Virus record (IMG/VR): IMGVR_UViG_3300045988_110999
Source of the DNA: a virus
Length of the DNA: 64,000 bases
Reading direction: 5' to 3' (one strand)
The translations under genes and the position numbers were made by a program. The notes under the pieces were generated by a model, which was not told where the DNA came from, searched no databases, and worked only from the letters and a program-made list of their open reading frames with translations. Shown in pieces: positions 2,592-43,862 of the stretch (the stretch's first letter is position 1; each line of letters starts with the position of its first letter).

Positions 2592-2622
2592 ATAAGCATA
2601 AAATGCTGTTTTTTGTCATTTG

Positions 2623-3675: not shown

Positions 3676-3713
3676 TGCGTCCCAATCAATGAAACTTTGG
3701 TTTTCAGAAATGT

Positions 3714-4046
3714 CTACACCTTTGATTCAACATCACTCCTATTCTTTGAACCGTCTACGGGCCGGGGAGGAATCGGATATTCACCGGAGGGACTGTTCTT
3801 CGTGGAATCTACCAACCATTTGAACAGACCAACCAAACCCATACCACAAGCAGAAATCCCTTGCCAGCATGAGTTAATCTCGAAATGAGTCCCCCACAGC
3901 CCATTAGACCAATAACCATATAACCAAGATAAAAGAACTACGAGAGCCGAAAAAAGCCCGAATGCCATACAGATGTACGACATATTGGACTTCATAGCTA
4001 CAAACATTTTATTTACTGTACGAGTCAACCCTTTTTTGAATATCAT
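3714..4046 (-). CDS. Holin candidate (two TM segments, several in-frame Met starts, charged C-terminus)
   Basis: 110 aa. TM segments are YICMAFGLFSALVVLLSWLYGYW and GISACGMGLVGLFKWLV. It lies directly upstream of the endolysin, and MIFKK/MFVAMK/MKSNM offer dual-start options. Confidence 0.65.
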   Translation of the reverse strand: MIFKKGLTRTVNKMFVAMKSNMSYICMAFGLFSALVVLLSWLYGYWSNGLWGTHFEINSCWQGISACGMGLVGLFKWLVDSTKNSPSGEYPIPPRPVDGSKNRSDVESKV

Positions 4047-4380
4047 CCAATCTCCGTTCTACAGACTCGAAACGTTCATGGAACCGGGCTTCGTCGAGGG
4101 CCAGCTGTTGCTGTTCAGCACCGATACGGTTCACTAAACTATTTAGATTGGATATACTCTGCACGAGCTGGTCGTACTTATCTCCGAGCATCTTGGCCCG
4201 TTCCCTCTGACGCTCTTCCCTTTCGTTCTCCCTTTCTTCAATCACTTGATCGTATTTCTCTCTCCATTCCCGTTCCTTGTCACGATGTGAAAAATACGGC
4301 TTGAGGATGGCCTCTCGGAAGCCACCCAATGCCGTACAAATCAAAATCAAAGCTTCTATAACTGTTGTGAAATTCTCCAT
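4009..4380 (-). CDS. N-terminally membrane-anchored coiled-coil protein (lysis-cassette associated)
   Basis: 123 aa. It has an N-terminal TM (VIEALILICTALGGF) followed by a highly charged R/E-rich helix. It sits between the giant protein gene and the holin. Confidence 0.6.
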   Translation of the reverse strand: MENFTTVIEALILICTALGGFREAILKPYFSHRDKEREWREKYDQVIEERENEREERQRERAKMLGDKYDQLVQSISNLNSLVNRIGAEQQQLALDEARFHERFESVERRLDDIQKRVDSYSK

Positions 4381-4390
4381 TCATACCCCC

Positions 4391-10300: not shown

Positions 10301-12430
10301 GAAATTACCATCGGAGGTGTAATATTTAGAATGGACGCCATTCTTAGCAAAGTCGTCCTTGATAGTCTGTTCTGTTGCCTTTTGTTTCCCTTTCTTTTGG
10401 GTTTCGTAGGAACGTGTTGCGGCGGCAGAACTTGCTCTCAGGGTCTTAGAGATACCGGCGTCGTCCGGGGTAAGGCCTAATTTATTAAGCCGTGCTTTAC
10501 CAGCGTCAGAAATATCTCCACCCTTGGGTTTGTAGAAGTCGCTATGAGTCCCATTCTGTTTGATATCCTCTTGGATAGTGTTTACGGCGGTAGCTACGTT
10601 CTTCGTATGCTGTTCTTTATCAGCTTTACGGTTCGCTACTTCCTGTACGTGGATTTCCTTGCGCTGTGCCGGGAAGAAACCGGTGTTCGGAGAGATGCTA
10701 TTGGCATTATCTAATTCCTGTTGGGAAATAGGAAGGCCCAGTTCATTTTTCTTTTGGATGAGAGCTTGAGCCGTAGCCTGACGGTAACGGTCGTTATTTC
10801 GTTGTTGGAGGATAGCGGCTACTGGCTGTGCGCTCTTATTGTCGGAGATGATAGGGATATTCGGCGATTCTATCATAGCTTTAACGAGGTCATCCCGTTC
10901 CGGGCCCGTCATCATTGCTGTCCCATGTACTGGATTATAGCCAAGGACGCTCGCTTCCCCACTATCAATCAGGTTAGCAATCGCCTGATTAGCTGAATAC
11001 TGGTCGTCGCTCTTCCCGTAAGCTTCCTGTTCAGCTAAATCATACTCCGTTGGGTTATTCATCTTGTCCATGAGCTGTTGCGTGAATTCTTTAGGGCCTG
11101 TTGGTACAGAAGGTTCACTGACTGGTTGAGTAGCTGGGGCTTCCTGAGAGTTCATGGGGATGGCATCTAAATCCTGCTGAGTAAGTTCAGTTTCGTCAAC
11201 GGGGATATTTTCTGTAACCGGAGCTTCGTCTTGAATAGACTCTTCGACATTATGGGTATCATCCTGTGCGTGAACGGCATCATCAATCGGACTGGGAACA
11301 ACCTTTTCTTCACCAGTAGTGTCTACCCGTCTTGCTCTACGATGGCCGATACCACCAAGGAGGCCCATCGGAATCATGCCCATACCAGCCATAAACATCT
11401 GGTCCTTGGATTCATCACCCATTTCAATAGGATTGTAGTTGATATCTTCCCCGGTAAGAGCATTATTCTGGAATTCATTCTGTAAGCCTTCTGTATAGGA
11501 TTCCATAGCCATACCCGGGACACTATGAGTAAGGAGTCGAGTAGAATATCTCTTGTCCGCAAAGTCTGCTACCTTGCCCCCAAAGTCAGACAGGGAGCCG
11601 AGAAGTCCTTTCCCAGCTTCCTGTTCGGTTGATTCTGTCGCTCTACTAAGGAGTCTCTTAGGAGCGTTTGCGGCTCCTTTCAACATGCTCATAGATACGG
11701 CATTAGATGCTACCGACAATCCAATATTATCCATGAAGTCAGTATCCATAGCATTACGAGCTTCTTCTTGTGTAGCCCCGTTCTGAATAGCCTGATTATA
11801 TGTATCGCCTGCTTCTGATGCGGCATCTAAATAACCACCAGCGATGTCACCTGCGATTTTTGGAGCGGCACTGAAAGCTGTTCTAGCAATCCTTGCCCCC
11901 GTACCCAATTCTCCAACATCAGACCCTACGGCAATAGCCTTCTCTAAGGTGGAAGCTGTCTTTGCCAATCTTGCGGCTCTGGCCGCTTTTAAACCAGCTC
12001 CTACTACCGCACCACCAATACCGCCGGTAGCGGCGCCGACGAGAGCAGTGGCGGCCATGTCAGGGGCGGAAGAACCAACAAGATTGAAGGCGGTGTAAGC
12101 AAGGCCGTTTGGGTCTGTGATGAAATCAAAGAGACTATCGTTGCGGGTGAACTGCCGTCTTGCCTGTCTACCTTGGGCAAGAGCATCCCCAAAATCCTCG
12201 AGACCTTGTCCGAACCCGAATTCCTGATTCATATAAGTACCGATAGAACCGAGACTTGACCCCAAACCATTCATAGCGCCGTTAATGGCACTATCTAAGA
12301 ATCCACCATCACCGAATGAATCATAAGTCCCTCCATCATCCGGGGCAATGACACTATCGAGGTATTGGTCATTTGCGGCGGCTCTATCGTATAAGGCCTG
12401 AAGGTAATCTTCTGTAGTTCTTCCTGCCAT
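4391..12430 (-). CDS. Giant (2679 aa) virion-associated/ejection-type multidomain protein with an internal HExxH motif
   Basis: A single uninterrupted ORF. It has a Gly/Ala-rich hydrophobic N-terminus, a very long K/E-rich low-complexity middle, LHETIHSLH (HExxH, codons 8093-8107, aa 1442-1446), and a C-terminal part with hydrophobic segments. It lies next to the peptidoglycan hydrolase genes in the structural block. Confidence 0.75.
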   Translation of the reverse strand: MAGRTTEDYLQALYDRAAANDQYLDSVIAPDDGGTYDSFGDGGFLDSAINGAMNGLGSSLGSIGTYMNQEFGFGQGLEDFGDALAQGRQARRQFTRNDSLFDFITDPNGLAYTAFNLVGSSAPDMAATALVGAATGGIGGAVVGAGLKAARAARLAKTASTLEKAIAVGSDVGELGTGARIARTAFSAAPKIAGDIAGGYLDAASEAGDTYNQAIQNGATQEEARNAMDTDFMDNIGLSVASNAVSMSMLKGAANAPKRLLSRATESTEQEAGKGLLGSLSDFGGKVADFADKRYSTRLLTHSVPGMAMESYTEGLQNEFQNNALTGEDINYNPIEMGDESKDQMFMAGMGMIPMGLLGGIGHRRARRVDTTGEEKVVPSPIDDAVHAQDDTHNVEESIQDEAPVTENIPVDETELTQQDLDAIPMNSQEAPATQPVSEPSVPTGPKEFTQQLMDKMNNPTEYDLAEQEAYGKSDDQYSANQAIANLIDSGEASVLGYNPVHGTAMMTGPERDDLVKAMIESPNIPIISDNKSAQPVAAILQQRNNDRYRQATAQALIQKKNELGLPISQQELDNANSISPNTGFFPAQRKEIHVQEVANRKADKEQHTKNVATAVNTIQEDIKQNGTHSDFYKPKGGDISDAGKARLNKLGLTPDDAGISKTLRASSAAATRSYETQKKGKQKATEQTIKDDFAKNGVHSKYYTSDGNFDSLPNDVKQVITKSAGGEVPPKIRNQIKALSGKALTENRDKTQAIVSKKNHMDTVQHINSSSKNRGVTLDAKKMEGLSVKEQSHQIEMANAKIAKRDKIAEVDAVRGFEKQRVDKSHEITIQSPFARKLSQYANKGRDKEAVTELHNFVENFFNYKKGLGMNRLLSKFPKKYRESVKEAVTSYVNARTQDKYDPLDHIQNIEQKIAEVDRQAKQVSDEKNRERAKRSYENKKEAQRTILKPVEGSSQDLLDIMSKAQGGESESKPKEKPVKELSPATKAKKTRTTINEAKSKGTKEEIKAVHSAGKALAKEIRGKHLANNDPIHYFLHHEELEKKYGERAATLSKDKYKGMYVQRGNVKEHLVPDIISWVNDGPTKVANSVNFPGGKALQNLVKSGKYTQEEVSKAKAEYEKYKKQADTENAKTKAEATESKDRETVNNQGKYIVNTKEERIATPNQLSYKYKDEMVTSSVSDMDVKIPKGEIETFGGDKVKLKDADKQDIADYLADYYNIDTEPDNIKVTKENEVHVTGASRSFFPDDTSQDIFNRLSKEDQEQFLADGHTVKGEDGNVQTDEATSDARGGNRPEHLEGDVVQRNSYPPKRNDAGRSRQKNQEKGQKISGQVHEAGGGLGPEYRLTKLGNKLKKAIHLATPEGVNIDGPTLNKLINDSFEDLPPRLQSKIAEALDDMATVFVYDGQKEKTGALGRTYSEYNVIRIFQDALSGDKNTPTILHETIHSLHAAIERGLGDKEYGMNYITSNNFVDKENDTLKDFEVKYINKLIKQLRDGDGFTNSWKMLVYDHAIINPEFIDYVCDKISRSKTLQNSLRKDRELYDELFVAKTLSQLKLSLESPQYKSQRKGVEGRIINMANKAIDGAGTLSSARASILEKAKVLKPFSNGTFTDKAVKAFLNFIENRNTPSSDALSLKNRIDKQLHKVGIPTHEETAQRAALYAAGVLPGKERMSILQRQFEDPLHIFKKYFPDGMPIYRLADGARRKMEKFVGDYSQKFLDVFKGLDKDERKVFDSLVLKANEMHRDPMQVINLDDGIHLAVRHDAFIEHYDSAPEALKKMQEIRNSGKYRLSKMIQESEENENAGFGKGFTVFALPKGSAAFKSEAAAQKYAKVHEKEAYVSMIRSLSDKPMKSSQVDNVMNSFMKYRDMMDKVYETSVQAAKESGANYKLPKKLNGYFPQIHLPYVVWIKDKDTKTFVRTASFYNASEASKKVKELNRAGQEAYWAEINPINAMAHGDRLAKVDRMTEDQLKQLNDEGLISVSESNNDTGNYNETLKRVFNSLFKEHHTVAVKDVMAHIEKVNRYKSNTGSAAHDNYVKKLQSQIRVTGLYKKLQKMKKDATISQDELNNIINSANMKQQFNPFFQKRSGASGYSQNVADSVYRYLITSGNFISKAKFYAEATAYYTSKYHKDIREEATTNEQKFLKTYIEANHRPTSVTALDRMINDYMNLLAEKDPTGIGSLLRRRYGHNLYTGLAKDTLSLQNLLKLGLFRPASLAVQAFQVLNANAKLGGNKFVGMSKYFRTGLKEATGSKNDAKWKELYDYIGINERSVAIDSEILGRPTGVFDKKILFGKSAKDFTDKSMWFFNVGDKWARKATAIGGYLKAMDDFKALTHDEKKMMLNEAITSWQTKKERARQNHYPFKAPKPTTESVRKEFVFNKTKDLVTETNFNYSVTDSPLAMTEAGVTGKLLLQFKKYPLFTLNFILHNTKEENIRFLVPMFIMAGALGMPCANLVDDIFDKTTGHSPVMALKKGMINWAGGSSAKKALVNVALYGAPSLAGINLSGNIGLGDAIQFDLGPTVSTVSNIAQGNGIIRSLAPRLGALEEAVTGKKENKYGQITAKYTPYDQLLKVFGFRTMAETNSSDATRVMKLATQKYNECKSQAKKEYIKNPNTDNYEALKIYGMSDRDIAKLLKTKDTTAMENSVKTVPKKAKSPAAQEVRDLSKTAQEFVK

Positions 12431-12444
12431 TTAATCCCTCCTAA

Positions 12445-13800
12445 TTAATTGAACAAGCCCGAGAAAAATCTTGTAACTGGGTTATTCGTCCATGTATGGT
12501 CTTGGTCACTCAAGTCCTCCCCAAACTTATCCTTTAATTTGTTTACATAGTTGTCTTCTACTTCTTGTCCGTATGCACTTCCCGGACCACCATCAGGTTC
12601 AAGCATAGACAAAGTGTTAATATTTTCGTACTCAGCGTTTTTGAGAGCTTCTCTAATTTCATCCCCCGTCATACTACCATCGGCGGCGGCATCATATACT
12701 TGCTGGAACGGAGCGCTGAGAGTTTCCTTAATCTTTGCAACATCACCGATAGAATAGTGAGGCGCCTTCCCGGAGCCTCTGCCACCCCCACCTCTGGCCG
12801 CACTTCTAGCCATGGAGAGAGCAAGTTTCTGTTCGTCCAGTTGAGCTTGTCTATCAGCAATAGCCTTCTTGAGATCGAATTCCTTCTTCCAGTTGTCCTG
12901 AGCTTGTTTAGCTTGCTGTTGCTGGAAGTTGTAATTACGTTCAGCATTATTCATTTGTACCTGCGTCTTCAACAGGTCACTGCTATTAACGAACTGGTCA
13001 TCATTCGTCGGTAAGTTGATACCGAACATCTTACCAAGTGCCGCATAACCACGACGATTGTCTACACTGCCACTGCCATTGATAATCTGAGCTAACTGCA
13101 TAGATTGCTTCAACCGAGTCTGCTGATTTGCTTGGTCAATTTGGTCTTTTAAATCTGCGTCACGATTACTATTAAGTTGTTTAGCACTATCCTTCATCCA
13201 CCGGGAGACGTCTGGGTTTAAGAATAGAAGGTCGGTCTGATAATTGCGGTCTGTCAAGTAGTGGGTTCGTTTTTCGTGAGCGTATGACCGAGTCGGTTGG
13301 GATAGGATATCCATAACACTTTGTTGGTCGAACGGTTCATTCGGATTACTTGTTCTTATCTTAGCGGCCAAGTTAATGAACGGATTCCCATTAGCATCCT
13401 TAGCTTGGAAATTGAAACTTCCTCCCTGACCACCAGTCTTAATGATAGCCGTAGGTTGAAGCCCACCCATCTGAGTAGCGTCACTACCGTGTACTATTTG
13501 GTTCTGTGAGCTGGAATTACCGTAATAACCACCATTGCCGTCAGCTAGAACAACGTGGTCGTTGTCGCCGTACACAATTACATCATTAGGATTGTCTGTT
13601 CCTGCTTGGTAAGGTACTACCGGAATTCCCGCCTGTTGGGCATCGGATACCATACCGGGTACTGAATATTGCCCATTATTATATTCATTTGCAAGAAACT
13701 TACTATTACCTGCCCCCATGAGGCCAACGGCTTCCACACATCCATTACTCCCATTCTTCATTGTTTGGCCTAAAAAACCATCTGCGTAAGATATTATCAA
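12445..13800 (-). CDS. Virion-associated cell-wall hydrolase: Cys/His peptidase-like (CHAP/NlpC-like) head plus a shared C-terminal module
   Basis: TTG start is coupled to the upstream stop (TTGA). The N-terminus has NGCVEAVG ... GDNDHVVLADG (Cys...His pattern). The C-terminal 320 aa are paralogous to the C-terminus of 13797-14780 (GSFNFQAKDANGNPF... vs GTFNFQAKDAQSRPF...). Confidence 0.6.
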   Translation of the reverse strand: MIISYADGFLGQTMKNGSNGCVEAVGLMGAGNSKFLANEYNNGQYSVPGMVSDAQQAGIPVVPYQAGTDNPNDVIVYGDNDHVVLADGNGGYYGNSSSQNQIVHGSDATQMGGLQPTAIIKTGGQGGSFNFQAKDANGNPFINLAAKIRTSNPNEPFDQQSVMDILSQPTRSYAHEKRTHYLTDRNYQTDLLFLNPDVSRWMKDSAKQLNSNRDADLKDQIDQANQQTRLKQSMQLAQIINGSGSVDNRRGYAALGKMFGINLPTNDDQFVNSSDLLKTQVQMNNAERNYNFQQQQAKQAQDNWKKEFDLKKAIADRQAQLDEQKLALSMARSAARGGGGRGSGKAPHYSIGDVAKIKETLSAPFQQVYDAAADGSMTGDEIREALKNAEYENINTLSMLEPDGGPGSAYGQEVEDNYVNKLKDKFGEDLSDQDHTWTNNPVTRFFSGLFN

Positions 13801-31122: not shown

Positions 31123-31389
31123 CTATAATCTGCTATACCAATCTTCTGAGTTGGCATAACTAACTTTCTTTTCCTCTAACTCTTCCAGCTCGCTCTTGGC
31201 AATCTTACCGTTATTTACCTTAGCTACGAGCCAGTCTCTAAAATCCTCCGACGCCACCAGCTTGTTTCGGAGGTCCATTACCTCTTTCACGGGGCACGTT
31301 TTGAGGTTGCCGATTATCAGTTCTTGATAATCCTCCAACCATTCCGCTATTAGGGTTTCCACCAGCTGCGCCTGTTCCGCTTTGTCCAT
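31123..31389 (-). CDS. Small acidic helical protein, overlapping the portal 3' end in another frame
   Basis: 88 aa, MDKAEQAQLVETLIAEWLEDYQELIIGNLK.... It overlaps the Gly-rich tail of the portal ORF by 152 nt. Confidence 0.55.
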   Translation of the reverse strand: MDKAEQAQLVETLIAEWLEDYQELIIGNLKTCPVKEVMDLRNKLVASEDFRDWLVAKVNNGKIAKSELEELEEKKVSYANSEDWYSRL

Positions 31390-33391
31390 AGCCTGCGCCA
31401 GTTGTTTCTTGTACTCCAGCTCCGTTTTGTCCAGTTCCTACACCTCCCCACATAGTTCTAGTAGCCGAACCGGAATCAAACAGCGCTTGGATTTCCGGGG
31501 GCAGTGACACTAAGATATCAGGCGGTAAAACACCTGTCTGCATGTAAAGCTGGGCCGCTTGAGGCGGTAACGAAGCTAATACTTGCATCTTCAACTGATA
31601 TTCAGTAGCCATCCTCTGTTGTACAACAGCCGGATCGGTAATATAATCTGCGTAATTCTTAAAGCCAGCGGCTTCAATCCACTTCTTGAACAGATTATAG
31701 ATATTATCCGGAGTAACAATAGGAATACCAGCATTTCTCACCTGCATCAGGGCTGTAAGCATGGATTGGAGCATCAACTGAGTGCTTTCCTTCGAGGCAA
31801 TACTGATACCAGCATTGACAACCAAATCAAAATTACCTTGTAAATCGTCTGGGCTGATAGCCAGTTCCTTATTTGTAAGACGGATAACTGTATTCTGGTC
31901 AATGAATTTCTGGTTAAGACCAATCATGAACCGGAATAGTTCATAGACACCCGTTTCAGCGAACATCCGAGCAATCAGTTCAAGGCGCTGGGTGCTAGCT
32001 CCCATAATCTGAGAGATACCGGTAGCTGTCTTATTGAGGGTATTCGCATCAAGACCTTGGTTATACCGTGTAATACCCGTTCGGTTTTCCTTCTGAGACT
32101 CGATATATTCAAGGAACTGGTATGTATACGGACTCAACTGATTGACCGGCATCGACATAGCCACATCCTGCATTGGATGATTGGCTTTCTTTCGGATAAC
32201 AGCACGACCTTTGACATAATCGTCGATATTGATAGCATCCTCAGCCAGAATCATCTTTGGGTCATTCGTCAAAGCAATATTCTGTACAATCTGACGGGTG
32301 AGAGCGACTTTTAAGTCCTGCAATTCACCAATCAGCTCTGCGTAAGACCGTTTCACCCAGATTCGGTGAGGGTCTTTCGTCGGACTGATAGCAAAGAACG
32401 GATGTCGACCCATATAGTTCGGTTCTACTCGTAAAACGACGTCATCTACGATGGTAATAATCATATCTTCAAGAACACCATCGTTATTCCAGTCCAGCTT
32501 CGTATAACATTCATATAATGTTACCTCGGCTCTGGCGTCATCAGCTTCCTGGCTGCTTCCTTGGTAGTTATCTCCGATTACCTGCTCTACTTGGTCATCG
32601 CTCATAATTCCTGACTTAGGTTTCGGGGTAATCTGGTCTACGTTTGCGTAGATGCCCTGCTGTTCCCGTTCTCGGAGGTAGCTCATCGTCACTTTCTTCT
32701 TATGGGCAACGAAATTTGCCTCGTCCAAAGACTTTGCATCGGAGGAATATAACAGCTCAGACACCAGAATATTCTCGATGACCGGGGCGTTTTTTACGTA
32801 ATACGGGGATAAATACTGTACACGCACGATACCGAACATGTCAGGGCCCTCTACAGACTGGATTTCAACGTTCTGCTGGGTAAGTTCTTGGAAAGCTCTC
32901 ATATTCATGGACTGTTCAAGCAGTTGGTAATCCTCTTTCCGGTCCCAATAGCATTTAATGATGCCCATGCCCGTAATCAAGGCGTCTTTCATCCAGTTGT
33001 AAAGGATTGGAAAGAACCGGTTCTGCCGCTGGAGCTGATAAACAAGGAGCTGTTGCATGATTTCCGCGTTACGATCATCTTCTTCCGAGGACCCTTGTAC
33101 CGTAACGACTTCATCACCGCCCGTAAAGACTTTAATTAGAGACGGCAACGCCCATTCAATCGTATCTGTGACATCGGTAGATACTAAAGACGATACTTTC
33201 GACAGTCTAGGGAGCTTCCTTGCATAGTAATCCTTGTCTGCATAGTAGATTTCATATCGTTCCTTTACAGTAGGGAGGATAACCGTATCCTGATAGTTCT
33301 CTGCGTCGGAAATATCCCTCTGCAAGGCAGTCACAAGGCTTTTATCAATGTCATCCAGTGTCGGATTTTCCTTATTTTGGATGAAGCTCAA
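31238..33391 (-). CDS. Portal protein
   Basis: 717 aa located between the terL/tRNA region and the scaffold/capsid genes. Size and central helical core are typical. The C-terminal Gly-rich tail is of uncertain reality. Confidence 0.8.
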   Translation of the reverse strand: MSFIQNKENPTLDDIDKSLVTALQRDISDAENYQDTVILPTVKERYEIYYADKDYYARKLPRLSKVSSLVSTDVTDTIEWALPSLIKVFTGGDEVVTVQGSSEEDDRNAEIMQQLLVYQLQRQNRFFPILYNWMKDALITGMGIIKCYWDRKEDYQLLEQSMNMRAFQELTQQNVEIQSVEGPDMFGIVRVQYLSPYYVKNAPVIENILVSELLYSSDAKSLDEANFVAHKKKVTMSYLREREQQGIYANVDQITPKPKSGIMSDDQVEQVIGDNYQGSSQEADDARAEVTLYECYTKLDWNNDGVLEDMIITIVDDVVLRVEPNYMGRHPFFAISPTKDPHRIWVKRSYAELIGELQDLKVALTRQIVQNIALTNDPKMILAEDAINIDDYVKGRAVIRKKANHPMQDVAMSMPVNQLSPYTYQFLEYIESQKENRTGITRYNQGLDANTLNKTATGISQIMGASTQRLELIARMFAETGVYELFRFMIGLNQKFIDQNTVIRLTNKELAISPDDLQGNFDLVVNAGISIASKESTQLMLQSMLTALMQVRNAGIPIVTPDNIYNLFKKWIEAAGFKNYADYITDPAVVQQRMATEYQLKMQVLASLPPQAAQLYMQTGVLPPDILVSLPPEIQALFDSGSATRTMWGGVGTGQNGAGVQETTGAGYGQSGTGAAGGNPNSGMVGGLSRTDNRQPQNVPRERGNGPPKQAGGVGGF

Positions 33392-33899: not shown

Positions 33900-33974
33900 T
33901 GGCGGCGGTACTTAGAATCGAACTAAGACTAGCAGAGTCAAAGTCTGCTGTACTGACCGTTATACGATACCGCT
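33900..33974 (-). tRNA. tRNA-Gln (anticodon UUG), CCA encoded
   Basis: Hand-folded cloverleaf. Anticodon stem GCAGA/TCTGC, loop CTTTGAC. T-arm CTTAG-TTCGATT-CTAAG. Acceptor AGCGGTA/TACCGCC with an A1xC72 mismatch. Confidence 0.75.
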
Positions 33975-33977
33975 ATG

Positions 33978-34051
33978 TGGCATGGGTACAAGGACTCGAA
34001 CCAAGATTGACGGTTTTGGAGACCGTAGTCTTTCCATTAGACGATACCCAC
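33978..34051 (-). tRNA. tRNA-Trp (anticodon CCA), CCA encoded; T-stem has two U-U mismatches
   Basis: Acceptor GTGGGTA/TACCCAT. Anticodon stem ACGGT/ACCGT, loop CTCCAAA. T-arm CTTGG-TTCGAGT-CCTTG is imperfect. Confidence 0.6.
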
Positions 34052-34052
34052 A

Positions 34053-34140
34053 TGGCAGAGGAGGTGGGATTTGAACCCACGGTGCTGCTACGCACAGCTG
34101 TTTTCAGGACAGCCACCTTAATCCACTCGGACACTCCTCT
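34053..34140 (-). tRNA. tRNA-Ser (anticodon UGA), long variable arm, CCA encoded
   Basis: Acceptor AGAGGAG/CTCCTCT. Anticodon stem GCTGT/ACAGC, loop CCTGAAA. T-arm GTGGG-TTCAAAT-CCCAC. 88 nt, type II. Confidence 0.75.
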
Positions 34141-34144
34141 AATC

Positions 34145-34218
34145 TGGTTGCGGGGGATAGAGTCGAACTATCGTAACTGGGGAATGAGCCCAGCGTCCTA
34201 CCTTTAGACGACCCCGCC
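34145..34218 (-). tRNA. tRNA-Met (anticodon CAU) with initiator-like features
   Basis: Acceptor GGCGGGG...CCCCGCAACCA with a 1x72 mismatch. GGG/CCC closes the anticodon stem, loop CTCATTC. T-arm GATAG-TTCGACT-CTATC. Confidence 0.7.
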
Positions 34219-34896: not shown

Positions 34897-37353
34897 TTAC
34901 ATAGAACCGGCCAACGGGATTTCGTCTGTGACGACCTTCTCGTAAGAAGCGACCGGAGCAAAATAAATCTGGTCCTGATAGGCAAGTGCGTCAATCAGGT
35001 CATCATGCAAGGACTTCGGGAAAGCAAGGAATTCGCTTTCCAATTCCCCAAGAAAGGACGCTCCCATCGGGAACCATACGGTGCCAGCTTTGAACCGGGG
35101 CTGTACGGCTTTGATACGCTCTTCTTTCTTTTCCTTGGCTTCCAAATCCTTGACCGTGAACCAGATATTCCTCTTTGGCATTTCCTTTTCTATGAAGTGG
35201 GATAACGCCGCTTGGTAAGCGACCTTTTCCATACCCACATAGACAGGATGGTATCGAGTGACCGCCTCGAAGATAGCGTCTATCGTCTGGGTCGGATCGA
35301 ACCTCCCATACTTTATATCCAATACGAACCAATGGTTTTCACTATTGACCCCCACAGTGCAGACTACGGTATAGTCCGCGGTTTCTTTCTGGGAAATAGC
35401 TAGGTCTACCGTAGTGAAGATGTTCATATCCTTCACATCAAGCTCTTCTTGCTTGTAGTATTTGAAGTATTCTTTCTTGAACAGCTGGGTTTCCGGGGAA
35501 ATAGCAATACACATCTTTTCCCGTTCCCATACATCCAGATTCCCGATTCGTCTAAAAGCTTCCCTTTCCGCTTTTATCTCTTCGGAGCTCCATCTTTCGG
35601 GCCATACACTGTTTCCTTCTGCGTCTAGGATAGGGATACGGACACCGGTAAACTTCAAATCTTTCTGGTTCTCTATGACTCGTTCTATCAGGCATTTTTC
35701 ACCCAGATTGTTCCCGATCATGAAGATTCTCGTCTTCTTCCCTAAGAACAATACGTCGGACAGGAACCATTCCCAGTCCCCTTCCTGTACGGTATCTGAC
35801 TTCGCATCTTCCAAGTCTTGTGGGTCGTCAATCAGGACAATAGACGGTCGGGCATCGTGAACGTTCAAACCACGGATAGCAGCCCCTTTGCCGTAAGCTT
35901 CAAAACGGACCCACATCTCTTCGTCATCTTTATCTTTTACGATGACCTCGAAACCGTTCTGGGACTGTTCTACGATACGTACCAGGTTCATGGATAGTAG
36001 CTCATTATTGAGCCATTCATCCTCAATTTCCTTTAACCGCTTACTGGCAGCTCTCTGCGTAGCCATGATAAAGACTACGTACTGCCTATCCTTGGAAGGA
36101 TATGTCAGGCAGTGCATCGGGAAGGCTCTTAGTACGACGCCGCTATTATGGGTAACGATGCAGCCAGTACCACATAAAAACAGCCCCGTAGGGCTGTCTA
36201 CCTTGATACACATGGTGGGGACGGACTCACATTTAGAGACTTTCTTGACACTCCTCATCAGAGTGCGTTTATCCTGAGTATCACAAATCAAATCCCTCTT
36301 CCTTTTTAACTGAGGGAATTTAACTGTGGTCTTGAACGACACATCATAATGTGGCTTACATTCTTTGCCGTAGAGCTTAGATGGTTTCTTTATAATAGTA
36401 GCCTTAATACCTAAGCTTCTGACTAAATATAAAGTCCCCATAGCCAATCTTTCATTGGTGTTTGTGAAAGTAACCGTCCCAGCCTTGCTACCAGCCTTGG
36501 CAATCGTACCGTCACTATCAATGAGACCGGCCAATAATTGCCACCTGTTTTCCTCGCTGTCGTAGTAATACTCTTCCGGGATGTGCTTGTCGTATATCAA
36601 CCCAAGGGATTTAAGCTCTTTCAAGAACCCTCCTTGGAACTTTATCGTCATTGCCGTTTTATCTTTGCGGCATGTCTTGGTTCCCCAGTCGATGTTCAGG
36701 AATGTCTCTTCAAAATCTTCCCCACCGCAAGTGATTTCGGCTGCTTTTGAATGACCATCTCCAAGCCATAACCCCAAATCATACGGAGAAATGATATGTT
36801 CTTTCCGAGGGTATTGTAAGGGCATAGCTAATGGTATACGGTATGCCTTTTCTTGATATCCTTTTTTAGGTTTTCCCAAATCCTGCTTTGCGTACATCTC
36901 CAGTGTGGTTACGATATTCCATCTACGTTTGTGCTTGTCCCATACGCTCCACAGATGTTCTGCATCAGCAGTGATTTCCTCCCCGTCGTCAAATTCGACT
37001 TTGAAGCAAGGATGATCGTAAAAAATCTCGGAGGTGCTACCAACTAACACTGGGTTCCCATTCTCATCAAATACGTAGTCCCCCGGCTTGATTTCCCCCA
37101 TCAGCTTATATCCACTAGGGGTCGGGATAGGGGTGAAAATCGAGATTGCTTTTCCTGACTCACGAAAGCCCTCTACAGCGTAGTGGTGCTTGCCTTTTAA
37201 CAGTATCTTTCCCCATTCCTCTTGGAATGAAGGGGTCTTTACTTCATCTTCGACGGGGAGGAATACTCTTCTGAATAACATAAGGTCATCTTTGGCGTCA
37301 CGGAACAGCTTCGCCATCATTACTTTCTTGTCCATATCTCTCTCCCCTTTCAT
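34897..37353 (-). CDS. terL: Terminase large subunit, interrupted by an intein
   Basis: Extein motifs are Walker A GFRESGK|S (split by the intein), Walker B SIVLIDDPQD, and nuclease-domain TTVDLAISQKETADYT and DDLIDALAY. Without the 335-aa insert the protein is 483 aa. Confidence 0.85.
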   Translation of the reverse strand: MKGERDMDKKVMMAKLFRDAKDDLMLFRRVFLPVEDEVKTPSFQEEWGKILLKGKHHYAVEGFRESGKAISIFTPIPTPSGYKLMGEIKPGDYVFDENGNPVLVGSTSEIFYDHPCFKVEFDDGEEITADAEHLWSVWDKHKRRWNIVTTLEMYAKQDLGKPKKGYQEKAYRIPLAMPLQYPRKEHIISPYDLGLWLGDGHSKAAEITCGGEDFEETFLNIDWGTKTCRKDKTAMTIKFQGGFLKELKSLGLIYDKHIPEEYYYDSEENRWQLLAGLIDSDGTIAKAGSKAGTVTFTNTNERLAMGTLYLVRSLGIKATIIKKPSKLYGKECKPHYDVSFKTTVKFPQLKRKRDLICDTQDKRTLMRSVKKVSKCESVPTMCIKVDSPTGLFLCGTGCIVTHNSGVVLRAFPMHCLTYPSKDRQYVVFIMATQRAASKRLKEIEDEWLNNELLSMNLVRIVEQSQNGFEVIVKDKDDEEMWVRFEAYGKGAAIRGLNVHDARPSIVLIDDPQDLEDAKSDTVQEGDWEWFLSDVLFLGKKTRIFMIGNNLGEKCLIERVIENQKDLKFTGVRIPILDAEGNSVWPERWSSEEIKAEREAFRRIGNLDVWEREKMCIAISPETQLFKKEYFKYYKQEELDVKDMNIFTTVDLAISQKETADYTVVCTVGVNSENHWFVLDIKYGRFDPTQTIDAIFEAVTRYHPVYVGMEKVAYQAALSHFIEKEMPKRNIWFTVKDLEAKEKKEERIKAVQPRFKAGTVWFPMGASFLGELESEFLAFPKSLHDDLIDALAYQDQIYFAPVASYEKVVTDEIPLAGSM
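36145..37149 (-). mobile_element. Class-3-type intein with a LAGLIDADG homing endonuclease, inserted in the terL P-loop
   Basis: aa 69-403. It starts with Ala directly after GK. Block B is ADAEHLW (Trp at B12). LAGLIDADG motifs are LGLWLGDGHS and LLAGLIDSDGTI. Block F is VPTMCIKV (Cys at F4). Block G is CIVTHN followed by Ser+1 (Thr at G5). Confidence 0.8.
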
Positions 37354-37474
37354 CCTATTCGGTTTCGTTTCTTCATTTGCTTTTCTACCTTTGTCAAATT
37401 GTCAAAATACCTCTTGATTTTTCAAAATTTTTTTCGTTTTCCTATTTTACGGTTATAGTACCCCCTTTTATTTT

Positions 37475-37503
37475 TTATTAATACTCACTTATATGAATAA
37501 ATC
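37475..37503 (+). promoter_or_regulatory. Plus-oriented member of the ATACTCACTT promoter family (weak hexamers)
   Basis: TTATTA-atactcacttatatgaa(17)-TAAATC. It has the same spacer motif and geometry as the strong promoters at 62583-62611 and 57457-57485. Confidence 0.4.
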
Positions 37504-37509
37504 TATCAT

Positions 37510-38340
37510 ACAAAGCCGTATTTGAACCATTAAAAGCGAATAAAACTAACAAAAAGGTCAAAAAAATGACGTACAAGAGAGGGGTAACTTCCCTAATTTC
37601 CGCCCGGCCAGCCAAGTACCCGAAAAAGCGAAGCCCCACCCTCTAGATCTATGTACACTGCACGAGAACCATTAGAATCCGTGGGAAAGGCCAGACGATG
37701 CCGATAAATGGCTCAACCATGCGGTTTTAAGGCCATCCAACGGCTATGCTATGATACAGTTGTCCCAAGGGAAAGGGCCAAGGGGAAAGCTCATAAGTGA
37801 GTCGATTACTCGGGTTCTAACCTTAGACCCCTAGCACGGGTCGCGGGACATCAGAACTTTGACAACTGCATATAGTAGGGCCGTGCGGCACGGCCGCCCC
37901 CTATAGTCCTCATTAGAAGGACGATAAGGAAGTCGATTGAGGGGACGACGACAGTGCCGCACGGTAGCACGAGGCAAGGGCCTATTGGCAAGGCCCGATA
38001 TGCCCGATAAAAACGGGCCAGCCTTAATTGCTCTGCCTAGGAACACCTCGAAAATGATATTGAGAGGTGGGCATGTGGCGACGTCGATGTACAGGCGGAC
38101 GTGAAGAGCGTCCACGTAATGCCGGTGTGAAGACGAGAAGCGGCCTAAAGCCCTACCCTAGCCGGTAGGTGCTTCACAAGGTGGTTAGAGCGGTTAAAAT
38201 CCTCCGCACCCATATGGGGAAAGAGGCAATACGTGCGTACCTGCTATGGGACGAAAATCCCATGACGTGAATCCTTGAATCGGCTGAAACAATGCCGATT
38301 CCTATAACGTCGAAAAGGGGCTTTCAGGCCCCTATACAAG
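37510..38340 (+). ncRNA. Candidate large structured ncRNA or very long structured leader (family unassigned; strand inferred)
   Basis: About 830 nt, visibly more GC-rich than its flanks, with no credible ORF. It has dense perfect hairpins: 37879-37895, 37978-37996, 38002-38018, 38097-38113, 38152-38169, 38246-38263, 38277-38301 and 38316-38333. Loops are A-rich on the plus strand, and there is an 11-nt long-range complement (37881-37891 vs 37954-37964). Confidence 0.5.
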
Positions 38341-38392
38341 GGAAGGAAGTTAGTTTTTACCCTCTAAAGGGGATTGCATGGAGGTATGCTGC

Positions 38393-38662
38393 ATGTACAA
38401 ATTGGTTAAAAAGTTCAAGAGTATTAGTGGAGAAATCCACATCAAAGAAAAGACTTATGAAGTTAATCGCAAGACCATTCTAAAAGTCGTCCGACAGGCG
38501 GCTAAAAAATACCGCCGTGATGAGGGCTGGGAAAATCTCCTGGCCGTTCCTAGGAAACAAGGGCGTGCTAAGGTATCGGGCCATTGTGAAATGAACCGCA
38601 CCTATATTGCTCGTCAATGCGCCGGTATCGGGCGCATTGATATCTATGTAGTAGAGTTATAA
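38393..38662 (+). CDS. Hypothetical early protein
   Basis: ATG at 38393, 8 nt after GGAGG. 89 aa, basic. Confidence 0.55.
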   Translation: MYKLVKKFKSISGEIHIKEKTYEVNRKTILKVVRQAAKKYRRDEGWENLLAVPRKQGRAKVSGHCEMNRTYIARQCAGIGRIDIYVVEL

Positions 38663-38734
38663 TTTATTCAACTTCCTTCCTTTATATAAGGGCCTGAATA
38701 TCCCTATAGGGGGATTGAAGACTAGAATGTTCAA

Positions 38735-40269: not shown

Positions 40270-40289
40270 TTTGAAAGGGGTTCTGCTTT

Positions 40290-41597
40290 ATGGGTAAACG
40301 TATTATTTGCATCGACAGTAAGGACAATAAGGTATGTTTCTATGATAAGAACGACAATCTTTTTGTTCTGGATATTGGCAACGAAATGCTTATGGGAAAG
40401 ACTTTCCCCTGCCCTCATTGTGGGAAAGAACACGAGGTAAAGGATTTTGTACAGATCGGGGATGAGCTACTATGCTCTGATTGCTATGACCCTAGCTTCT
40501 ATGATAAATGCTCAGAATGTGGGGAATACTTTAAGAAGGATGAGCTGTTTGACATAGACGGTAAACGGCTCTGCAAGTCCTGTTTCAACAATAATTATTT
40601 TACCTGTGATAATTGCGGAGCGGTTTATCCAAAATCAGAAGCCGTCTATGTTGGATATGACAGATTTTGCCAGGATTGTGTCGACCAGCTTCTAGACGAA
40701 GGAGAACTCATCCAGTGCGTCTGCTGTGATGAAATCTTGCGGGCTGAGGATGCTTATGAGCTGGATGGAAATTTCTACTGCTCGTCCTGCTATGACCAGG
40801 AACGTGAAGAAGAATATGGAGACTCCATCGTAGGATACCACTGTAACCGTCCATTCCGGTTCAAGAGTTTGGCCAGCGATGTAGATTACCCGAAAAAAGG
40901 TAATCTTTACCTAGGTTTAGAACATGAACTGTCTAACGCCGGGGAAGATAACTACAAGCTGGCAAAAGAGCTTGTAGATGATTATGACCGTGTTTGCGAA
41001 CACGACTCGTCAATCAGTGATGGGTTTGAAGTCATCTCAGACGCATTGACATTTGATTATTGGAGAAAGAAGGAAGATTTGCAGGCTTATATGAATACCA
41101 TTAACAGATTGTCGGATTTCGATCCGGACGACTCTAGCGGTATCCATGTCCATATTTCTAGAGGCCCTCTCTCCGACAATGCTGTCATTGAAATGGCGTG
41201 GTTCGTCATGCAACATTACGACGACTGCATTAAATTTGGTCGTCGCGACCCCGACGAATGTGAGTATTGTGAACGGGTCACGAGAGGCGACAAGGAAGAC
41301 TTATGGGATTATGCTACGGGTCATGGTGTAGCCGTCAACCTCGAACATGAATCGAACCTCGAATTGCGGTTCTTTAAGACGACCGACGATGTCGACCACA
41401 TGTGGGCCATCTTAGAATTTAGCTACGCATTGGCTATGGTAGCGAAAGGGGGTGTCATTGATATTGAATGGGCGGATATCCGTAAATTCTGTGAAGAAGA
41501 TGGGAAAGAAGAACATTTCCTCGCCGAATTGAACGAAGGATTCGATTGCGAAGAGAATGAGGATTATGAATATAACCTCACCGAATACTTTGCTTGA
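40290..41597 (+). CDS. Repeated CxxC zinc-ribbon N-terminal region fused to an amidoligase-like (COOH-NH2 ligase) C-terminal domain
   Basis: Six or more CxxC...CxxC units (CPHCGKEH..CSDCYD..CSECGEYF..CKSCFN..CDNCGAVY..CQDCVD..CVCCDE..CSSCYD) are followed by LYLGLEHELSN...CEHDSSISDGFEVISD...SGIHVHISR...LELRFFK. I recognise the latter as the putative amidoligase fold pattern. Confidence 0.55.
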   Translation: MGKRIICIDSKDNKVCFYDKNDNLFVLDIGNEMLMGKTFPCPHCGKEHEVKDFVQIGDELLCSDCYDPSFYDKCSECGEYFKKDELFDIDGKRLCKSCFNNNYFTCDNCGAVYPKSEAVYVGYDRFCQDCVDQLLDEGELIQCVCCDEILRAEDAYELDGNFYCSSCYDQEREEEYGDSIVGYHCNRPFRFKSLASDVDYPKKGNLYLGLEHELSNAGEDNYKLAKELVDDYDRVCEHDSSISDGFEVISDALTFDYWRKKEDLQAYMNTINRLSDFDPDDSSGIHVHISRGPLSDNAVIEMAWFVMQHYDDCIKFGRRDPDECEYCERVTRGDKEDLWDYATGHGVAVNLEHESNLELRFFKTTDDVDHMWAILEFSYALAMVAKGGVIDIEWADIRKFCEEDGKEEHFLAELNEGFDCEENEDYEYNLTEYFA

Positions 41598-41650
41598 TTT
41601 TTAACCAAAATTACTTACTTTACATTGTCTTTATTACAGGAGGTATATAT

Positions 41651-42541
41651 ATGTGTGTTATCGCTGTCTATGAAAAAGGTTTGGTTTTGAACGAAAATGA
41701 ATTAAAGAACTGCTTTACAGGCAATTCCAACGGGGCTGGACTCATGTATCAGAAAGACGGCAAAGTCCATATTGAAAAAGGCTTCATGAAATGGGATACA
41801 TTCTGGGAGGCGGCTAAACATCTCCCCTCTGATGTAGATAGGGTCTTTCATTTCCGGATTGCTACTAGTGGTAAAATCAGTGCCGCTTGTTGTCATCCCT
41901 TCCCTATCTGTGATGACTATAAGAAAATGAGCTTGGCTAGTTGTGATACCCCCATGGGATTCGCCCATAACGGGGTTCTTGGCGATTTCGAGCCGAAGAA
42001 AGGAATGAAGTCCACTTATTCAGATTCTATGAAGTTCGGTAAAGAAGTCCTGTTCCATTTAGGTAATCTCTTAAATGAACGTAGTGTACGGGATTTGATT
42101 GAATTGTACACAACTTCCCGGTTTGCCATTATGACTCCCAAGAATACCTATATGATTGGCTCATGGGAACAGTCAAGAGAGTCGGGAGCGTTTTATAGTA
42201 ACACGTCCTATGAAGGATACCGTTATTTAAATTGTTTCGACGATTCGTTCGTCAGAAGTTATTATTCCGACTTTGTTTATGGTGGATATACACAAGATGA
42301 TTATACGGAAGGTATTCTCATTGAAAGATTCCCAAACAACGAAAAAATAGAAAATGAAATTGCCGAAGCTATCGAGGAACAGTTGGGCGTGTTCATCTAC
42401 GATACCGACGACTCCAATGTAGGAAAATTCAAAGATACCACATTCTTCATTGAAAGGGAATTAGGCAAACGACTGCCAGAGAGTGGAATTATTAAAGTTG
42501 GCAAGCGTGATGTCAAATGGAGAAGAATCAGTTTAAAATAA
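41651..42541 (+). CDS. Class-II (Ntn) glutamine amidotransferase-like protein
   Basis: Start MCVIAVYEKG... places a Cys directly after the initiator Met (Ntn nucleophile). NSNGAGLMY...HFRIATSG...HPF...AHNG is the GATase-2 pattern. Strong SD AGGAGG. Confidence 0.65.
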   Translation: MCVIAVYEKGLVLNENELKNCFTGNSNGAGLMYQKDGKVHIEKGFMKWDTFWEAAKHLPSDVDRVFHFRIATSGKISAACCHPFPICDDYKKMSLASCDTPMGFAHNGVLGDFEPKKGMKSTYSDSMKFGKEVLFHLGNLLNERSVRDLIELYTTSRFAIMTPKNTYMIGSWEQSRESGAFYSNTSYEGYRYLNCFDDSFVRSYYSDFVYGGYTQDDYTEGILIERFPNNEKIENEIAEAIEEQLGVFIYDTDDSNVGKFKDTTFFIERELGKRLPESGIIKVGKRDVKWRRISLK

Positions 42542-42552
42542 TAATAAAGTTA

Positions 42553-42581
42553 AAGGGCCTGCTTAGACAGGCCCTTTTCTT
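42553..42581 (+). terminator. Hairpin/terminator after the amidotransferase gene
   Basis: AAGGGCCTG-cttaga-CAGGCCCTT followed by TTCTT (weak U-tract). Confidence 0.5.
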
Positions 42582-42606
42582 ATCCCAAAAAGAGGTGATG
42601 TTGCTT

Positions 42607-42843
42607 ATGACAAGGTTAGAGATGTATTTGACAGAAGCTACGAGGATGTATGCATTTTATCCTTTATGGGATCGTAATGACACTCCGAGTGTAATAAGAA
42701 GGTTTATCGAGGATAGAACGAGATGTTTCGACAGGCCATACCCCCTTTTATTCGATTGTCCGAAAGTTTTGTCTTGTTACGACGATTGCGAGGCTTGCTG
42801 GAATCGTTTCTTTAAGAACTTTAGTGAGGTGCCTGCCTTATGA
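42607..42843 (+). CDS. CxxCW small Cys-rich protein, paralog 1 of 5
   Basis: 78 aa, ...FDCPKVLSCYDDCEACWNRFFKNF.... SD AAGAGGTGA. Confidence 0.6.
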   Translation: MTRLEMYLTEATRMYAFYPLWDRNDTPSVIRRFIEDRTRCFDRPYPLLFDCPKVLSCYDDCEACWNRFFKNFSEVPAL

Positions 42844-43085
42844 ATGAAGAGGAAAGGATTTTAACAATAAGAGTAAGGAACGTCTGTAAAGATATGGGCG
42901 CAGATAATTTAAGTGTTTTCGCATCTGGATTGATAGAGTATGCGTTGGAACATGGTGGTACAGATACCATATCAGGACTACCTCGAATCTGTTCCGGTTC
43001 TAACTGTATCGTTGGCAAGACTTGTAAAAGATGCTGGGGAAAGGAATTCGATAAGCTACAGGAAGGTGGTGAACCATTATTATGA
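42840..43085 (+). CDS. CxxCW small Cys-rich protein, paralog 2 of 5
   Basis: 81 aa, MNEEERILTIRVRNV...ICSGSNCIVGKTCKRCWGKEFDKL. ATGA overlap with paralog 1. Confidence 0.65.
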   Translation: MNEEERILTIRVRNVCKDMGADNLSVFASGLIEYALEHGGTDTISGLPRICSGSNCIVGKTCKRCWGKEFDKLQEGGEPLL

Positions 43086-43339
43086 ACAGAGAAGAATTAG
43101 TATTGACCTTACGGATTAGATATGTAATGAGTATACGCAACGGGGCCAATATCACACTTGTCATAGATGACATGAGGAGATGTTGCGAAAAGCTTAATTA
43201 TCAGAAGGCTTATGGATTTTCCCTTTTTTGCGCATGTCCGTGCTCCTGTACTAGGAATTGTTCCTGCTCAGAATGTTGGGAAGAAGCAATAACCAAATTC
43301 CTTATCCTTAGCAGCGGAGATGTTGATATTTCTTTGTAA
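43082..43339 (+). CDS. CxxCW small Cys-rich protein, paralog 3 of 5
   Basis: 85 aa, MNREELVLTLRIRYV...FCACPCSCTRNCSCSECWEEAITKF. ATGA overlap with paralog 2. Confidence 0.65.
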   Translation: MNREELVLTLRIRYVMSIRNGANITLVIDDMRRCCEKLNYQKAYGFSLFCACPCSCTRNCSCSECWEEAITKFLILSSGDVDISL

Positions 43340-43350
43340 CGGAGGCGAAA

Positions 43351-43599
43351 ATGATGAATAACGACGAAATGGTATTGACGATGAATATTAGGTATCTACT
43401 CACGATGAATGCAAAAGAAACGGCCCTTTTGGGGGTCATTAAAAATCGTGTTAATGTCATCAACAACCGGAGAGAGAATAATTGCGAACCCTATGCCGGT
43501 TGTCCTTGTGACTGCCCCATAAACATAACTTGCACACAATGTTGGTCCAGGGCAATAGCCAGGTTTGTGTGTATAGAAGACAATGCGCCCGTTTTATGA
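43351..43599 (+). CDS. CxxCW small Cys-rich protein, paralog 4 of 5
   Basis: 82 aa, MMNNDEMVLTMNIRYL...YAGCPCDCPINITCTQCWSRAIARF. Confidence 0.65.
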   Translation: MMNNDEMVLTMNIRYLLTMNAKETALLGVIKNRVNVINNRRENNCEPYAGCPCDCPINITCTQCWSRAIARFVCIEDNAPVL

Positions 43600-43610
43600 G
43601 AGGTGATACT

Positions 43611-43862
43611 ATGATAGAATGTGAAATCTATATGACACTGGCAATGAGAAATGTTTACGATAACGACTTCGTAAGGCCTTTAAAAATCAAGGACAGGGTT
43701 AAATACTTTGCCTCAGCGTACAAAGAAAGAAAGGCTACTAAAAGCTGGGTATATTGCGGGCATCCGGTTACACTATCATTTTGCCACTTTTCGTGCCCTG
43801 ATTGTTGGAGACATTGGACAAAAGAATTTACAGACAATAAACAAGACCATTGCGATTTATAA
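43611..43862 (+). CDS. CxxCW small Cys-rich protein, paralog 5 of 5 (most diverged)
   Basis: 83 aa, MIECEIYMTLAMRNVY...YCGHPVTLSFCHFSCPDCWRHWTKEF. SD GAGAGGTGA. Confidence 0.6.
   Translation: MIECEIYMTLAMRNVYDNDFVRPLKIKDRVKYFASAYKERKATKSWVYCGHPVTLSFCHFSCPDCWRHWTKEFTDNKQDHCDL

Follow-up and report, generated by a model that had tools for sequence, protein, structure and literature searches.

Two adjacent genes of a viral DNA of 64,000 nucleotides (IMG/VR record IMGVR_UViG_3300045988_110999; this whole stretch is hereafter called the window) encode a predicted carboxylate-amine ligase with an array of zinc ribbons and a predicted class II glutamine amidotransferase. They are referred to by their open reading frames (ORFs) as ORF1 and ORF2. 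Our leading reading, for which we judge the chances to be evenly balanced, is that this cassette encodes a self-contained, early, two-component enzyme that forms amides in a glutamine-dependent, ATP-driven reaction. What the analysis shows are the folds of the two proteins, their complete sets of catalytic residues, the strict pairing of the genes in other phages, purifying selection on both genes and their position in the early/accessory block. The window pair is a diverged addition to a known, biochemically uncharacterised kind of cassette that is widespread among phages, and it introduces no new principle.

A preliminary description of the window, made from its letters alone, had placed these two genes between positions 40290 and 42541, and the ORF list holds both of them there. 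It had also called such pairs predicted but biochemically uncharacterised, in agreement with the literature that we found.

Folds and catalytic residues of the two proteins

The features of the pair and the evidence for each are as follows.

40275–40280, plus strand: Shine-Dalgarno-like AAGGGG, 9 nucleotides ahead of the ORF1 start codon (sequence reading)
40290–41597, plus strand: ORF1, zinc-ribbon-array amidoligase of 435 amino acids (aa), isoelectric point (pI) 4.3, net charge about -55 (ORF list, homologues, and an AlphaFold2 model with a predicted local distance difference test score, pLDDT, of 88)
40410–40790, plus strand: array of four CxxC-x17-CxxC zinc-ribbon units, residues 41–167, with LIM-finger-like spacing; acidic, pI 4.2
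40821–41549, plus strand: predicted glutamine-synthetase-fold carboxylate-amine ligase domain (Amidoligase_2 family), residues 178–420 (invariant columns, Pfam matches of the family, Foldseek against PDB and BFVD)
41638–41643, plus strand: Shine-Dalgarno AGGAGG, 7 nucleotides ahead of the ORF2 start codon (sequence reading)
41651–42541, plus strand: ORF2, predicted stand-alone class II (N-terminal nucleophile, Ntn) glutamine amidotransferase of 296 aa with a Met-Cys start (homologues, alignment, AlphaFold2 model with pLDDT 88, Foldseek)
41651–42235, plus strand: Ntn glutaminase domain, residues 1–195 (alignment, Foldseek, Pfam matches of family members)
42308–42538, plus strand: C-terminal beta-alpha-beta domain, residues 220–296 (AlphaFold2, weak matches to ACT-like/ferredoxin-like folds)

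The C-terminal domain of ORF1 is a predicted glutamine synthetase (GS) fold of the Amidoligase_2 family, as the preliminary description had read it, and the assignment is settled by its relatives, its invariant residues and the AlphaFold and Foldseek comparisons. ORF1 itself scored 16.7–18.1 bits against Pfam Amidoligase_2 (PF12224), under the cut-off of 22. By contrast, PF12224 was matched at E<=0.01 by 19 of the 22 ORF1 homologues from the protein search and by 30 of 33 ligase domains drawn from more than 30 lineages, the best at 2.9e-13, and long homologues reached 25–41 bits. The same held for ORF2, which scored 12.3 bits against GATase_4 (cut-off 23) whilst members of its family passed. 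Ten long homologues of the ligase (657–994 aa) were scanned for domain fusions and gave just Amidoligase_2 and one weak double-zinc-ribbon match. In PHROGs, ORF1 matched the unnamed phrog_16683 (2e-17) and, weakly, an entry named 'amidoligase enzyme'.

Residues E211, E213, D239, S241, E247, H286, H288, R319, N350, E358 and R360 of the ligase domain were invariant in sets of 22 and 33 diverse members. The pattern ExE...D..E...HxH...R...N...ExR would correspond to that of the metal, ATP and phosphate ligands of GS. In Foldseek searches of the PDB, the C-terminal half of the ORF1 model matched GmaS (gamma-glutamylmethylamide synthetase), type III and type I/II GS, YbdK, Dop/PafA and plant glutamate-cysteine ligase (GCL), all with a probability of 0.9–1.0. 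The top matches in BFVD were full-length entries named 'Amidoligase enzyme' (E down to 1e-21) and 'LIM domain containing protein', from uncultured Caudovirales, Mycobacterium phage Tesla, crAss-like phages and Pseudomonas phage tf. Profile searches against PDB sequences, run with whole ORF1 and with the ligase domain, returned LIM and zinc-finger proteins and chance matches and no solved relative, and the ligase domain had no match to true GS at E<=10. The ORF1 domain would thus share the carboxylate-amine ligase fold and acyl-phosphate chemistry of PafA/Dop, GS, GmaS, YbdK (GCS2) and GCL, but it has no detectable sequence similarity to them, lacks the GS N-terminal domain and has no Pup-like gene nearby.

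ORF2 is a predicted class II (Ntn) glutamine amidotransferase, again in line with the preliminary description; relatives, invariant residues and structure comparisons settle this assignment too, and its catalytic motifs are all invariant in the aligned family. The mechanical ORF call opens at TTG 41594, but the real start is ATG 41651, where it was placed on the evidence of the AGGAGG 7 nucleotides upstream, the Met-Cys start of homologues and the gene calls of relatives. All 38 aligned homologues begin with Met-Cys, as had been described for ORF2, and independent gene calls in close relatives gave counterparts of 296 and 305 aa. More than 389 ORF2 homologues were found. The invariant residues are C2, R69, T72, G74, H82-P83-F84, H106-N107-G108, S124-D125 and Y182-S183-N184. 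In GlmS and PurF the corresponding Cys is the nucleophile, the Arg binds the carboxylate of glutamine, the Asn-Gly forms the oxyanion hole and the Asp binds the amino group of glutamine. The H.R.A..G...HPF...HNG motifs of ORF2 align with 1te5. Two family members (L158 and L013) exceeded the GATase_4 cut-off, at 28.4 and 26.7 bits. The ORF2 model, with pLDDT above 90 over most of residues 1–190, matched the GlmS glutaminase domain (E 8e-7) and PurF (3e-4) in Foldseek, at a probability of 0.99–1.0.

The C-terminal domain of ORF2 gave local Foldseek matches to ACT and NikR domains at weak E values, and a hidden Markov model of this domain matched a gut-phage subgroup only (83 loci). It is joined to the glutaminase domain by a Tyr/Asp/Gly-rich linker (residues 196–219; 42236–42307, plus strand) that is predicted to be disordered, with pLDDT below 50. 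In homologues the linker is highly variable in length and often Tyr/Gly-rich.

The N-terminal half of ORF1 carries eight CxxC dyads, at residues 41, 62, 74, 95, 106, 127, 143 and 164, which pair into four C-x2-C-x17-C-x2-C units repeating about every 32 aa. The preliminary description had counted at least six ribbons; this stands if single dyads are counted, of which there are eight, and does not stand for ribbons, of which there are four. The array cysteines are kept in homologues of 25–48% identity. Pfam LIM (PF00412) matched two stretches of ORF1 at 33.4 bits (cut-off 22.9), making it the sole Pfam family above threshold on the single sequence, and it also matched 8 of the 22 homologues. 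Profile matches of the ribbons in the PDB were to the LIM domains of paxillin and CRP, and the best Foldseek matches of the N-terminal half of the model were the LIM proteins LMO2, CRP1 and PINCH.

The ORF1 units thus resemble LIM domains in their spacing, Pfam score and best structural matches. They differ in that all ligands are Cys and that successive zinc sites are separated by 8, 7 and 12 residues, a departure from the canonical LIM double finger (C-x2-C-x16-23-H-x2-C-x2-C-x2-C-x16-21-C-x2-C/H/D), in which the spacer is 2 residues. The number of units also varies among the ligases, from 0 to 7 with a mode of 3–4 (55 lineages). The units are LIM-finger-like, yet ORF1 should not be classed as a LIM protein. 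Zinc ribbons, SH3-like additions or nothing may occupy the N-terminal region of a ligase, and the zinc-ribbon fusion is the common architecture of this very large family rather than a rarity.

Conservation of the pair across phages

Synteny was counted in IMG/VR loci, 80 of them anchored on the amidotransferase and 80 on the ligase. A ligase ORF stood directly upstream on the same strand in 78 of the 80 amidotransferase-anchored loci; the other two lay at a contig edge, such that the ligase was present in 78 of 78 informative loci, with no amidotransferase lacking a ligase among them. The median gap between the genes was about 4 nucleotides. The preliminary description had named loss of synteny in related phages as a result that would overturn its proposal, and the pairing proved to be conserved. 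From the side of the ligase the association was looser. The ORF2 family was directly downstream in 53 of the 80 ligase-anchored loci, and at least 12 further ligase loci had in the ORF2 position another class II amidotransferase, which starts MCAVFGF or MCGLYGF and scores above the GATase_6/7 threshold. An amidotransferase follows the ligase in L001, L003, L004/5, L006/7 (a T7-like prophage; 28% identity to ORF1), L184 and L185, with L002 as the exception. Ligases standing alone were seen in L002 and L095, both from the window's own phage group, and in L107/108 and L125/126.

Neighbouring genes were clustered over 174 loci belonging to 62 lineages. The ligase was found in 62 of 62 lineages and the amidotransferase in 48 + 5, whilst the next gene, encoding an SNF2 helicase, was found in 16 of 62, which reflects phage relatedness. 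No third conserved partner, as a possible substrate or tag, was found across the 62 lineages.

Some loci hold several copies. The 23-kb viral contig L105 (IMG/VR UViG 3300035698_009306) has three complete pairs and a fourth ligase at 1790–12981. Its paralogues are 25–33% identical and have zinc ribbons, an SH3-like region with zinc ribbons, or neither at their N-termini. Each diverged ligase of the three pairs has its own diverged amidotransferase, and this co-divergence argues for cognate pairing. In L004 (6690–10795), L014 and L015, two tandem ligase paralogues are followed by one amidotransferase. In L020 (4916–9586), L021, L037, L053, L054, L059 and L064, the amidotransferase is followed by a second ligase, about 830 aa in length, whose long N-terminal region is unannotated.

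Both genes had a ratio of nonsynonymous to synonymous substitution rates (dN/dS) of about 0.04 when compared with the relative L184 (87–93% identical), indicating that both are under purifying selection. When searched as nucleotides against 50,697 phage records, the pair gave no match. At the protein level, a word-indexed search recovered 21 ORF1 homologues, and at E<=0.001 an exhaustive profile search recovered 25,411 representatives. Their number fell to 13,693 at E<=1e-10 and to 5,796 (50%-identity clusters) at E<=1e-30, and most of the top 150 span both the ribbon region and the ligase. Cultured relatives include Mycobacterium phage Marvin (gp105/gp106) and its cluster, the OM43 phages MEP401/402 and a few others. 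The host taxa of the cassette run from Veillonella and Clostridia through Mycobacterium and Methylophilales to Ignavibacteria, and thus include Firmicutes and Negativicutes of the gut as well as marine Methylophilales. In species-representative genomes, the amidotransferase family was found in Veillonella, Phascolarctobacterium, Prevotella, Clostridia, Gammaproteobacteria, Ignavibacteria and Cytophagales.

Proposed function and alternative explanations

In the mechanism that we propose, the N-terminal Cys of ORF2, bared by removal of the Met, would hydrolyse glutamine to yield ammonia. The C-terminal domain of ORF1 would bind ATP and two divalent metals and activate a substrate carboxylate as an acyl-phosphate, which the ammonia, or another amine, would then attack to form an amide. 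As a protein-binding adaptor, the four acidic zinc ribbons of ORF1 would deliver a host macromolecule to the active site, most likely a protein or a cell-wall/peptide precursor. We infer the formation of a complex, the transfer of ammonia from ORF2 to ORF1 and the role of the ribbons; the strict adjacency of the genes and their duplication together are indirect evidence for a complex.

The distribution of the genes is consistent with this mechanism. The ligase is sometimes found alone and the amidotransferase never, as would fit an ammonia-supplying subunit serving a synthetase. Another glutaminase subfamily can replace ORF2, suggesting that the conserved role is generic glutaminase activity. 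This asymmetry, the replacement of the glutaminase and the duplication of the pair as a unit speak more for a supplier serving a synthetase than for a specific hydrolase. The ribbon array is acidic (pI 4.2), variable and can be replaced or lost, which fits a protein-targeting adaptor and argues against binding to nucleic acid. The preliminary description had offered protein or nucleic acid as the partner of the ribbons; the first is favoured and the second disfavoured. As there is no third shared gene and the hosts belong to several phyla, one would expect the target to be a component conserved widely among bacteria.

The closest working analogy is MurT/GatD, which amidates D-iso-glutamate in peptidoglycan. 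This enzyme too comprises two subunits encoded by two genes, and its glutaminase supplies the ammonia with which the ATP-dependent ligase amidates a carboxylate of a large substrate (PMC3267633). The folds are unrelated, however: MurT/GatD combines a Mur-ligase domain with a class I triad amidotransferase, where the window has a GS-like domain and a class II Ntn enzyme.

Several points weigh against an amide-forming enzyme of this kind. In the literature searched, no biochemical activity or substrate is reported for any family member. A fusion of ligase and amidotransferase, sought as a sign of a complex, was found in none of the 174 loci, and both window proteins score under the Pfam thresholds. 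By sequence, ORF2 is closest in Pfam to the stand-alone YafJ-type GATase_4 family and in the PDB to 1te5, and we take this GATase_4 family to include the hydrolase EgtC. The Arg and Asp of ORF2 would suit free glutamine and gamma-glutamyl-X equally, making a hydrolase role possible.

These YafJ-type relatives point towards a different division of labour, which we regard as a possibility, if not the one that we would expect. The ligase would join the carboxylate of glutamate or a peptide to an amine, such as that of a peptidoglycan stem peptide, a polyamine or lysine, and the Ntn enzyme would remove or trim the gamma-glutamyl group. Models for such a pair are EgtA/EgtC and the hypothesised 'peptidoglycan modification cassette' of podophages, which would block superinfection via an altered cell surface. 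The Foldseek matches of ORF1 include the gamma-glutamyl ligases GmaS, YbdK and GCL, and the portal of the window is of the SU10/phiEco32 type. In addition, the annotations of phiEco32-, LUZ24- and PSA-HP1-like phages assign the amidotransferase a degradative part and refer to peptidoglycan (PMC5498523; PMC10580990).

The cassette of phiEco32-, SU10-, LUZ24-, tf- and PSA-HP1-like phages holds an Amidoligase_2 protein, a COOH-NH2 ligase, an ATP-grasp protein, a class II amidotransferase and a gamma-glutamyl cyclotransferase (PMC5498523). In SU10, the amidotransferase and ATP-grasp protein of this larger cassette are listed among the early gene products (PMC4281155). The window resembles these phages in its combination of Amidoligase_2 and class II amidotransferase, expressed early there, and in its SU10-type portal, but it has two of the five enzymes, its amidotransferase is 296 aa long against about 486 aa, and its ligase carries zinc ribbons. 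No ATP-grasp protein, COOH-NH2 ligase or gamma-glutamyl cyclotransferase was found in Pfam scans of 16 ORFs between 31.2 and 47.1 kb, which cover part of those at 38–47 kb. None of these three families was common to the 62 lineages, and they were absent beside the pair in most of them. A writer and an eraser in two genes, with no step between them, would be futile, and canonical GATase_6/7 glutaminases can stand in the ORF2 position. The peptidoglycan idea is itself only hypothesised.

Closer counterparts are the two-gene pairs of other phages. Iyer, Abhiman, Burroughs and Aravind (2009) reportedly predicted phage and plasmid gene neighbourhoods in which a GS-like amidoligase accompanies a class II amidotransferase. 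Passages in later papers, including PMC5498523 and PMC10580990, cite this prediction in connection with the modification of the cell wall and the exclusion of superinfection in phiEco32, and with the synthesis of secondary metabolites in Marvin. Pairs of the Marvin gp105/gp106 and MEP401/402 type share with the window the ligase family (PF12224, PHROG 2443), the class of amidotransferase, the order of the genes and an early or genome-end location, and their function is known by prediction only. The window pair differs in being only 23–28% identical to them, in having both proteins under the Pfam thresholds, and in its four zinc ribbons and the ACT-like C-terminal domain of its amidotransferase.

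The ligase family is one of the large unexplained phage enzyme families, annotated since 2009 by prediction alone and variously assigned to cell-wall modification, a secondary metabolite or 'auxiliary metabolism'. A minimal working unit of two genes, with an acidic and highly variable adaptor, makes for a sharper and more testable question.

A bolder version of the amide-forming enzyme, which we think unlikely, is that the cassette serves host takeover or counter-defence by placing a hitherto undescribed post-translational mark on some conserved protein of the bacterium. It would do so by amidating a carboxylate (Glu, Asp or C-terminal) in a glutamine-dependent reaction, or by ligating an amine there, with the ribbons picking the target. 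If true, a mark on host proteins would explain the thousands of carrier lineages, the multiple diverged copies and the freely changing adaptor; were the target a host protein or defence component, this would be a new type of phage-imposed modification. PADLOC gave no match to the pair, which is thus absent from the catalogued defence systems, and NCBIfam gave weak zinc-finger noise only.

More doubtful still is tagging of the Pup kind, in which a PafA-fold ligase would attach the carboxylate of a peptide or amino acid to lysines of a protein, from host or phage, that the ribbons recruit. The Ntn enzyme would prepare or reverse the tag, like the deamidase/depupylase Dop. The LIM-like, acidic and variable adaptor does suggest protein recognition, and PafA and Dop are among the Foldseek matches (probability 0.9–1.0), but the matches to GS and YbdK equal that to PafA and the fold of the Ntn enzyme is unrelated to Dop. 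Furthermore, no small tag-like gene is conserved beside the cassette in the 62 lineages, and the Arg and Asp of ORF2 need free alpha-amino and alpha-carboxyl groups and so preclude action on an in-chain residue.

Genome papers have proposed that such genes are auxiliary metabolic genes (PMC10945688; PMC10580990), here a stripped-down glutamine/asparagine-type synthetase boosting the nitrogen or amino-acid metabolism of the infected cell. Although the ligase does have the predicted fold of GS, we hold this to be very improbable. A housekeeping enzyme would need neither an adaptor that varies between zinc ribbons, SH3-like additions and nothing nor the three diverged copies seen in a single phage; in sequence the ligase lies far from true GS, with no PDB sequence match at E<=10; and the pair has an early/accessory location in phages whose hosts already own such enzymes.

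Modification of nucleic acid, by amidation of a carboxylated base or a tRNA-bound amino acid (compare Gat-QueC, which makes 7-amido-7-deazaguanine, and GatCAB acting on Glu-tRNA(Gln)), has a similarly slim chance: zinc ribbons commonly bind nucleic acids and a phage tRNA-Gln lies about 6 kb away, but the array and the whole of ORF1 are strongly acidic (pI 4.2–4.3, net charge about -55), Pfam scans of the neighbouring genes, a part of the window, show no deazapurine or other base-modification domains, no base-modification family co-occurs with the cassette across the 62 lineages, and many cassette phages show no tRNA association in the loci fetched.

Surroundings of the pair

The pair sits in a plus-strand island at about 38.2–47.1 kb, with a minus-strand structural module, to which the portal, the terminase and four tRNAs belong, on one side and more minus-strand genes on the other. 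The plus-strand early/accessory block that holds the cassette lies between the terminase and an SNF2 helicase. The preliminary description had located the pair in such a block beside an array of paralogues, and this array, of five zinc-knuckle paralogues, does lie 3' of the pair. Between the two is one further element.

42552–42585, plus strand: terminator-like hairpin with arms AAAGGGCCUG / CAGGCCCUUU, a 6-nucleotide loop and a U-rich tail, directly 3' of ORF2 (pattern scan, which reported it on the minus strand)

The hairpin has a fold energy of -18.4 kcal/mol (z -3.9), and its core is kept in L184 and L185 despite near-saturated synonymous sites. It is followed by the five small zinc-knuckle paralogues and then by a Rha/Ant-type regulator and the SNF2 helicase. 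The paralogues (42607–43862, plus strand) are about 78–85 aa long with a C-terminal C-x2-C-W zinc knuckle, four of them ending in Leu. For the first paralogue the probable start is ATG 42607, preceded by GAGGTG at 42592–42597, rather than 42517. Small genes related to them come after the ligase in L002 and L095. The paralogues were considered as a substrate of the cassette and rejected, as they are limited to the window phage lineage, unlike the cassette.

On the other side of the pair, the 1.3 kb or so between the divergent terminase gene and the first convincing plus-strand gene (37354–38700) contains neither a long ORF nor an Rfam or tRNA match, and presumably holds divergent early and late promoters. 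The portal gene (31238–33391, minus strand) is of the SU10 type (PF23899, 509 bits), which ties the structural module to phiEco32/SU10-like podophages. Discussion of the larger amidoligase cassette reportedly began with this group. Between portal and terminase lies a cluster of tRNA genes (33900–34218, minus strand) for Gln(UUG), Trp(CCA), Ser(UGA) and Met(CAU). A functional link between the cassette and the tRNA-Gln was considered and dropped, ORF1 being too acidic. The large terminase subunit (34897–37353, minus strand; 818 aa) contains an intein with a LAGLIDADG/Hom_end homing endonuclease (Pfam). The terminase of L184 has 812 aa and an intein, whereas that of L185 has 477 aa and is intein-free, indicating that the intein is polymorphic in the window phage group.

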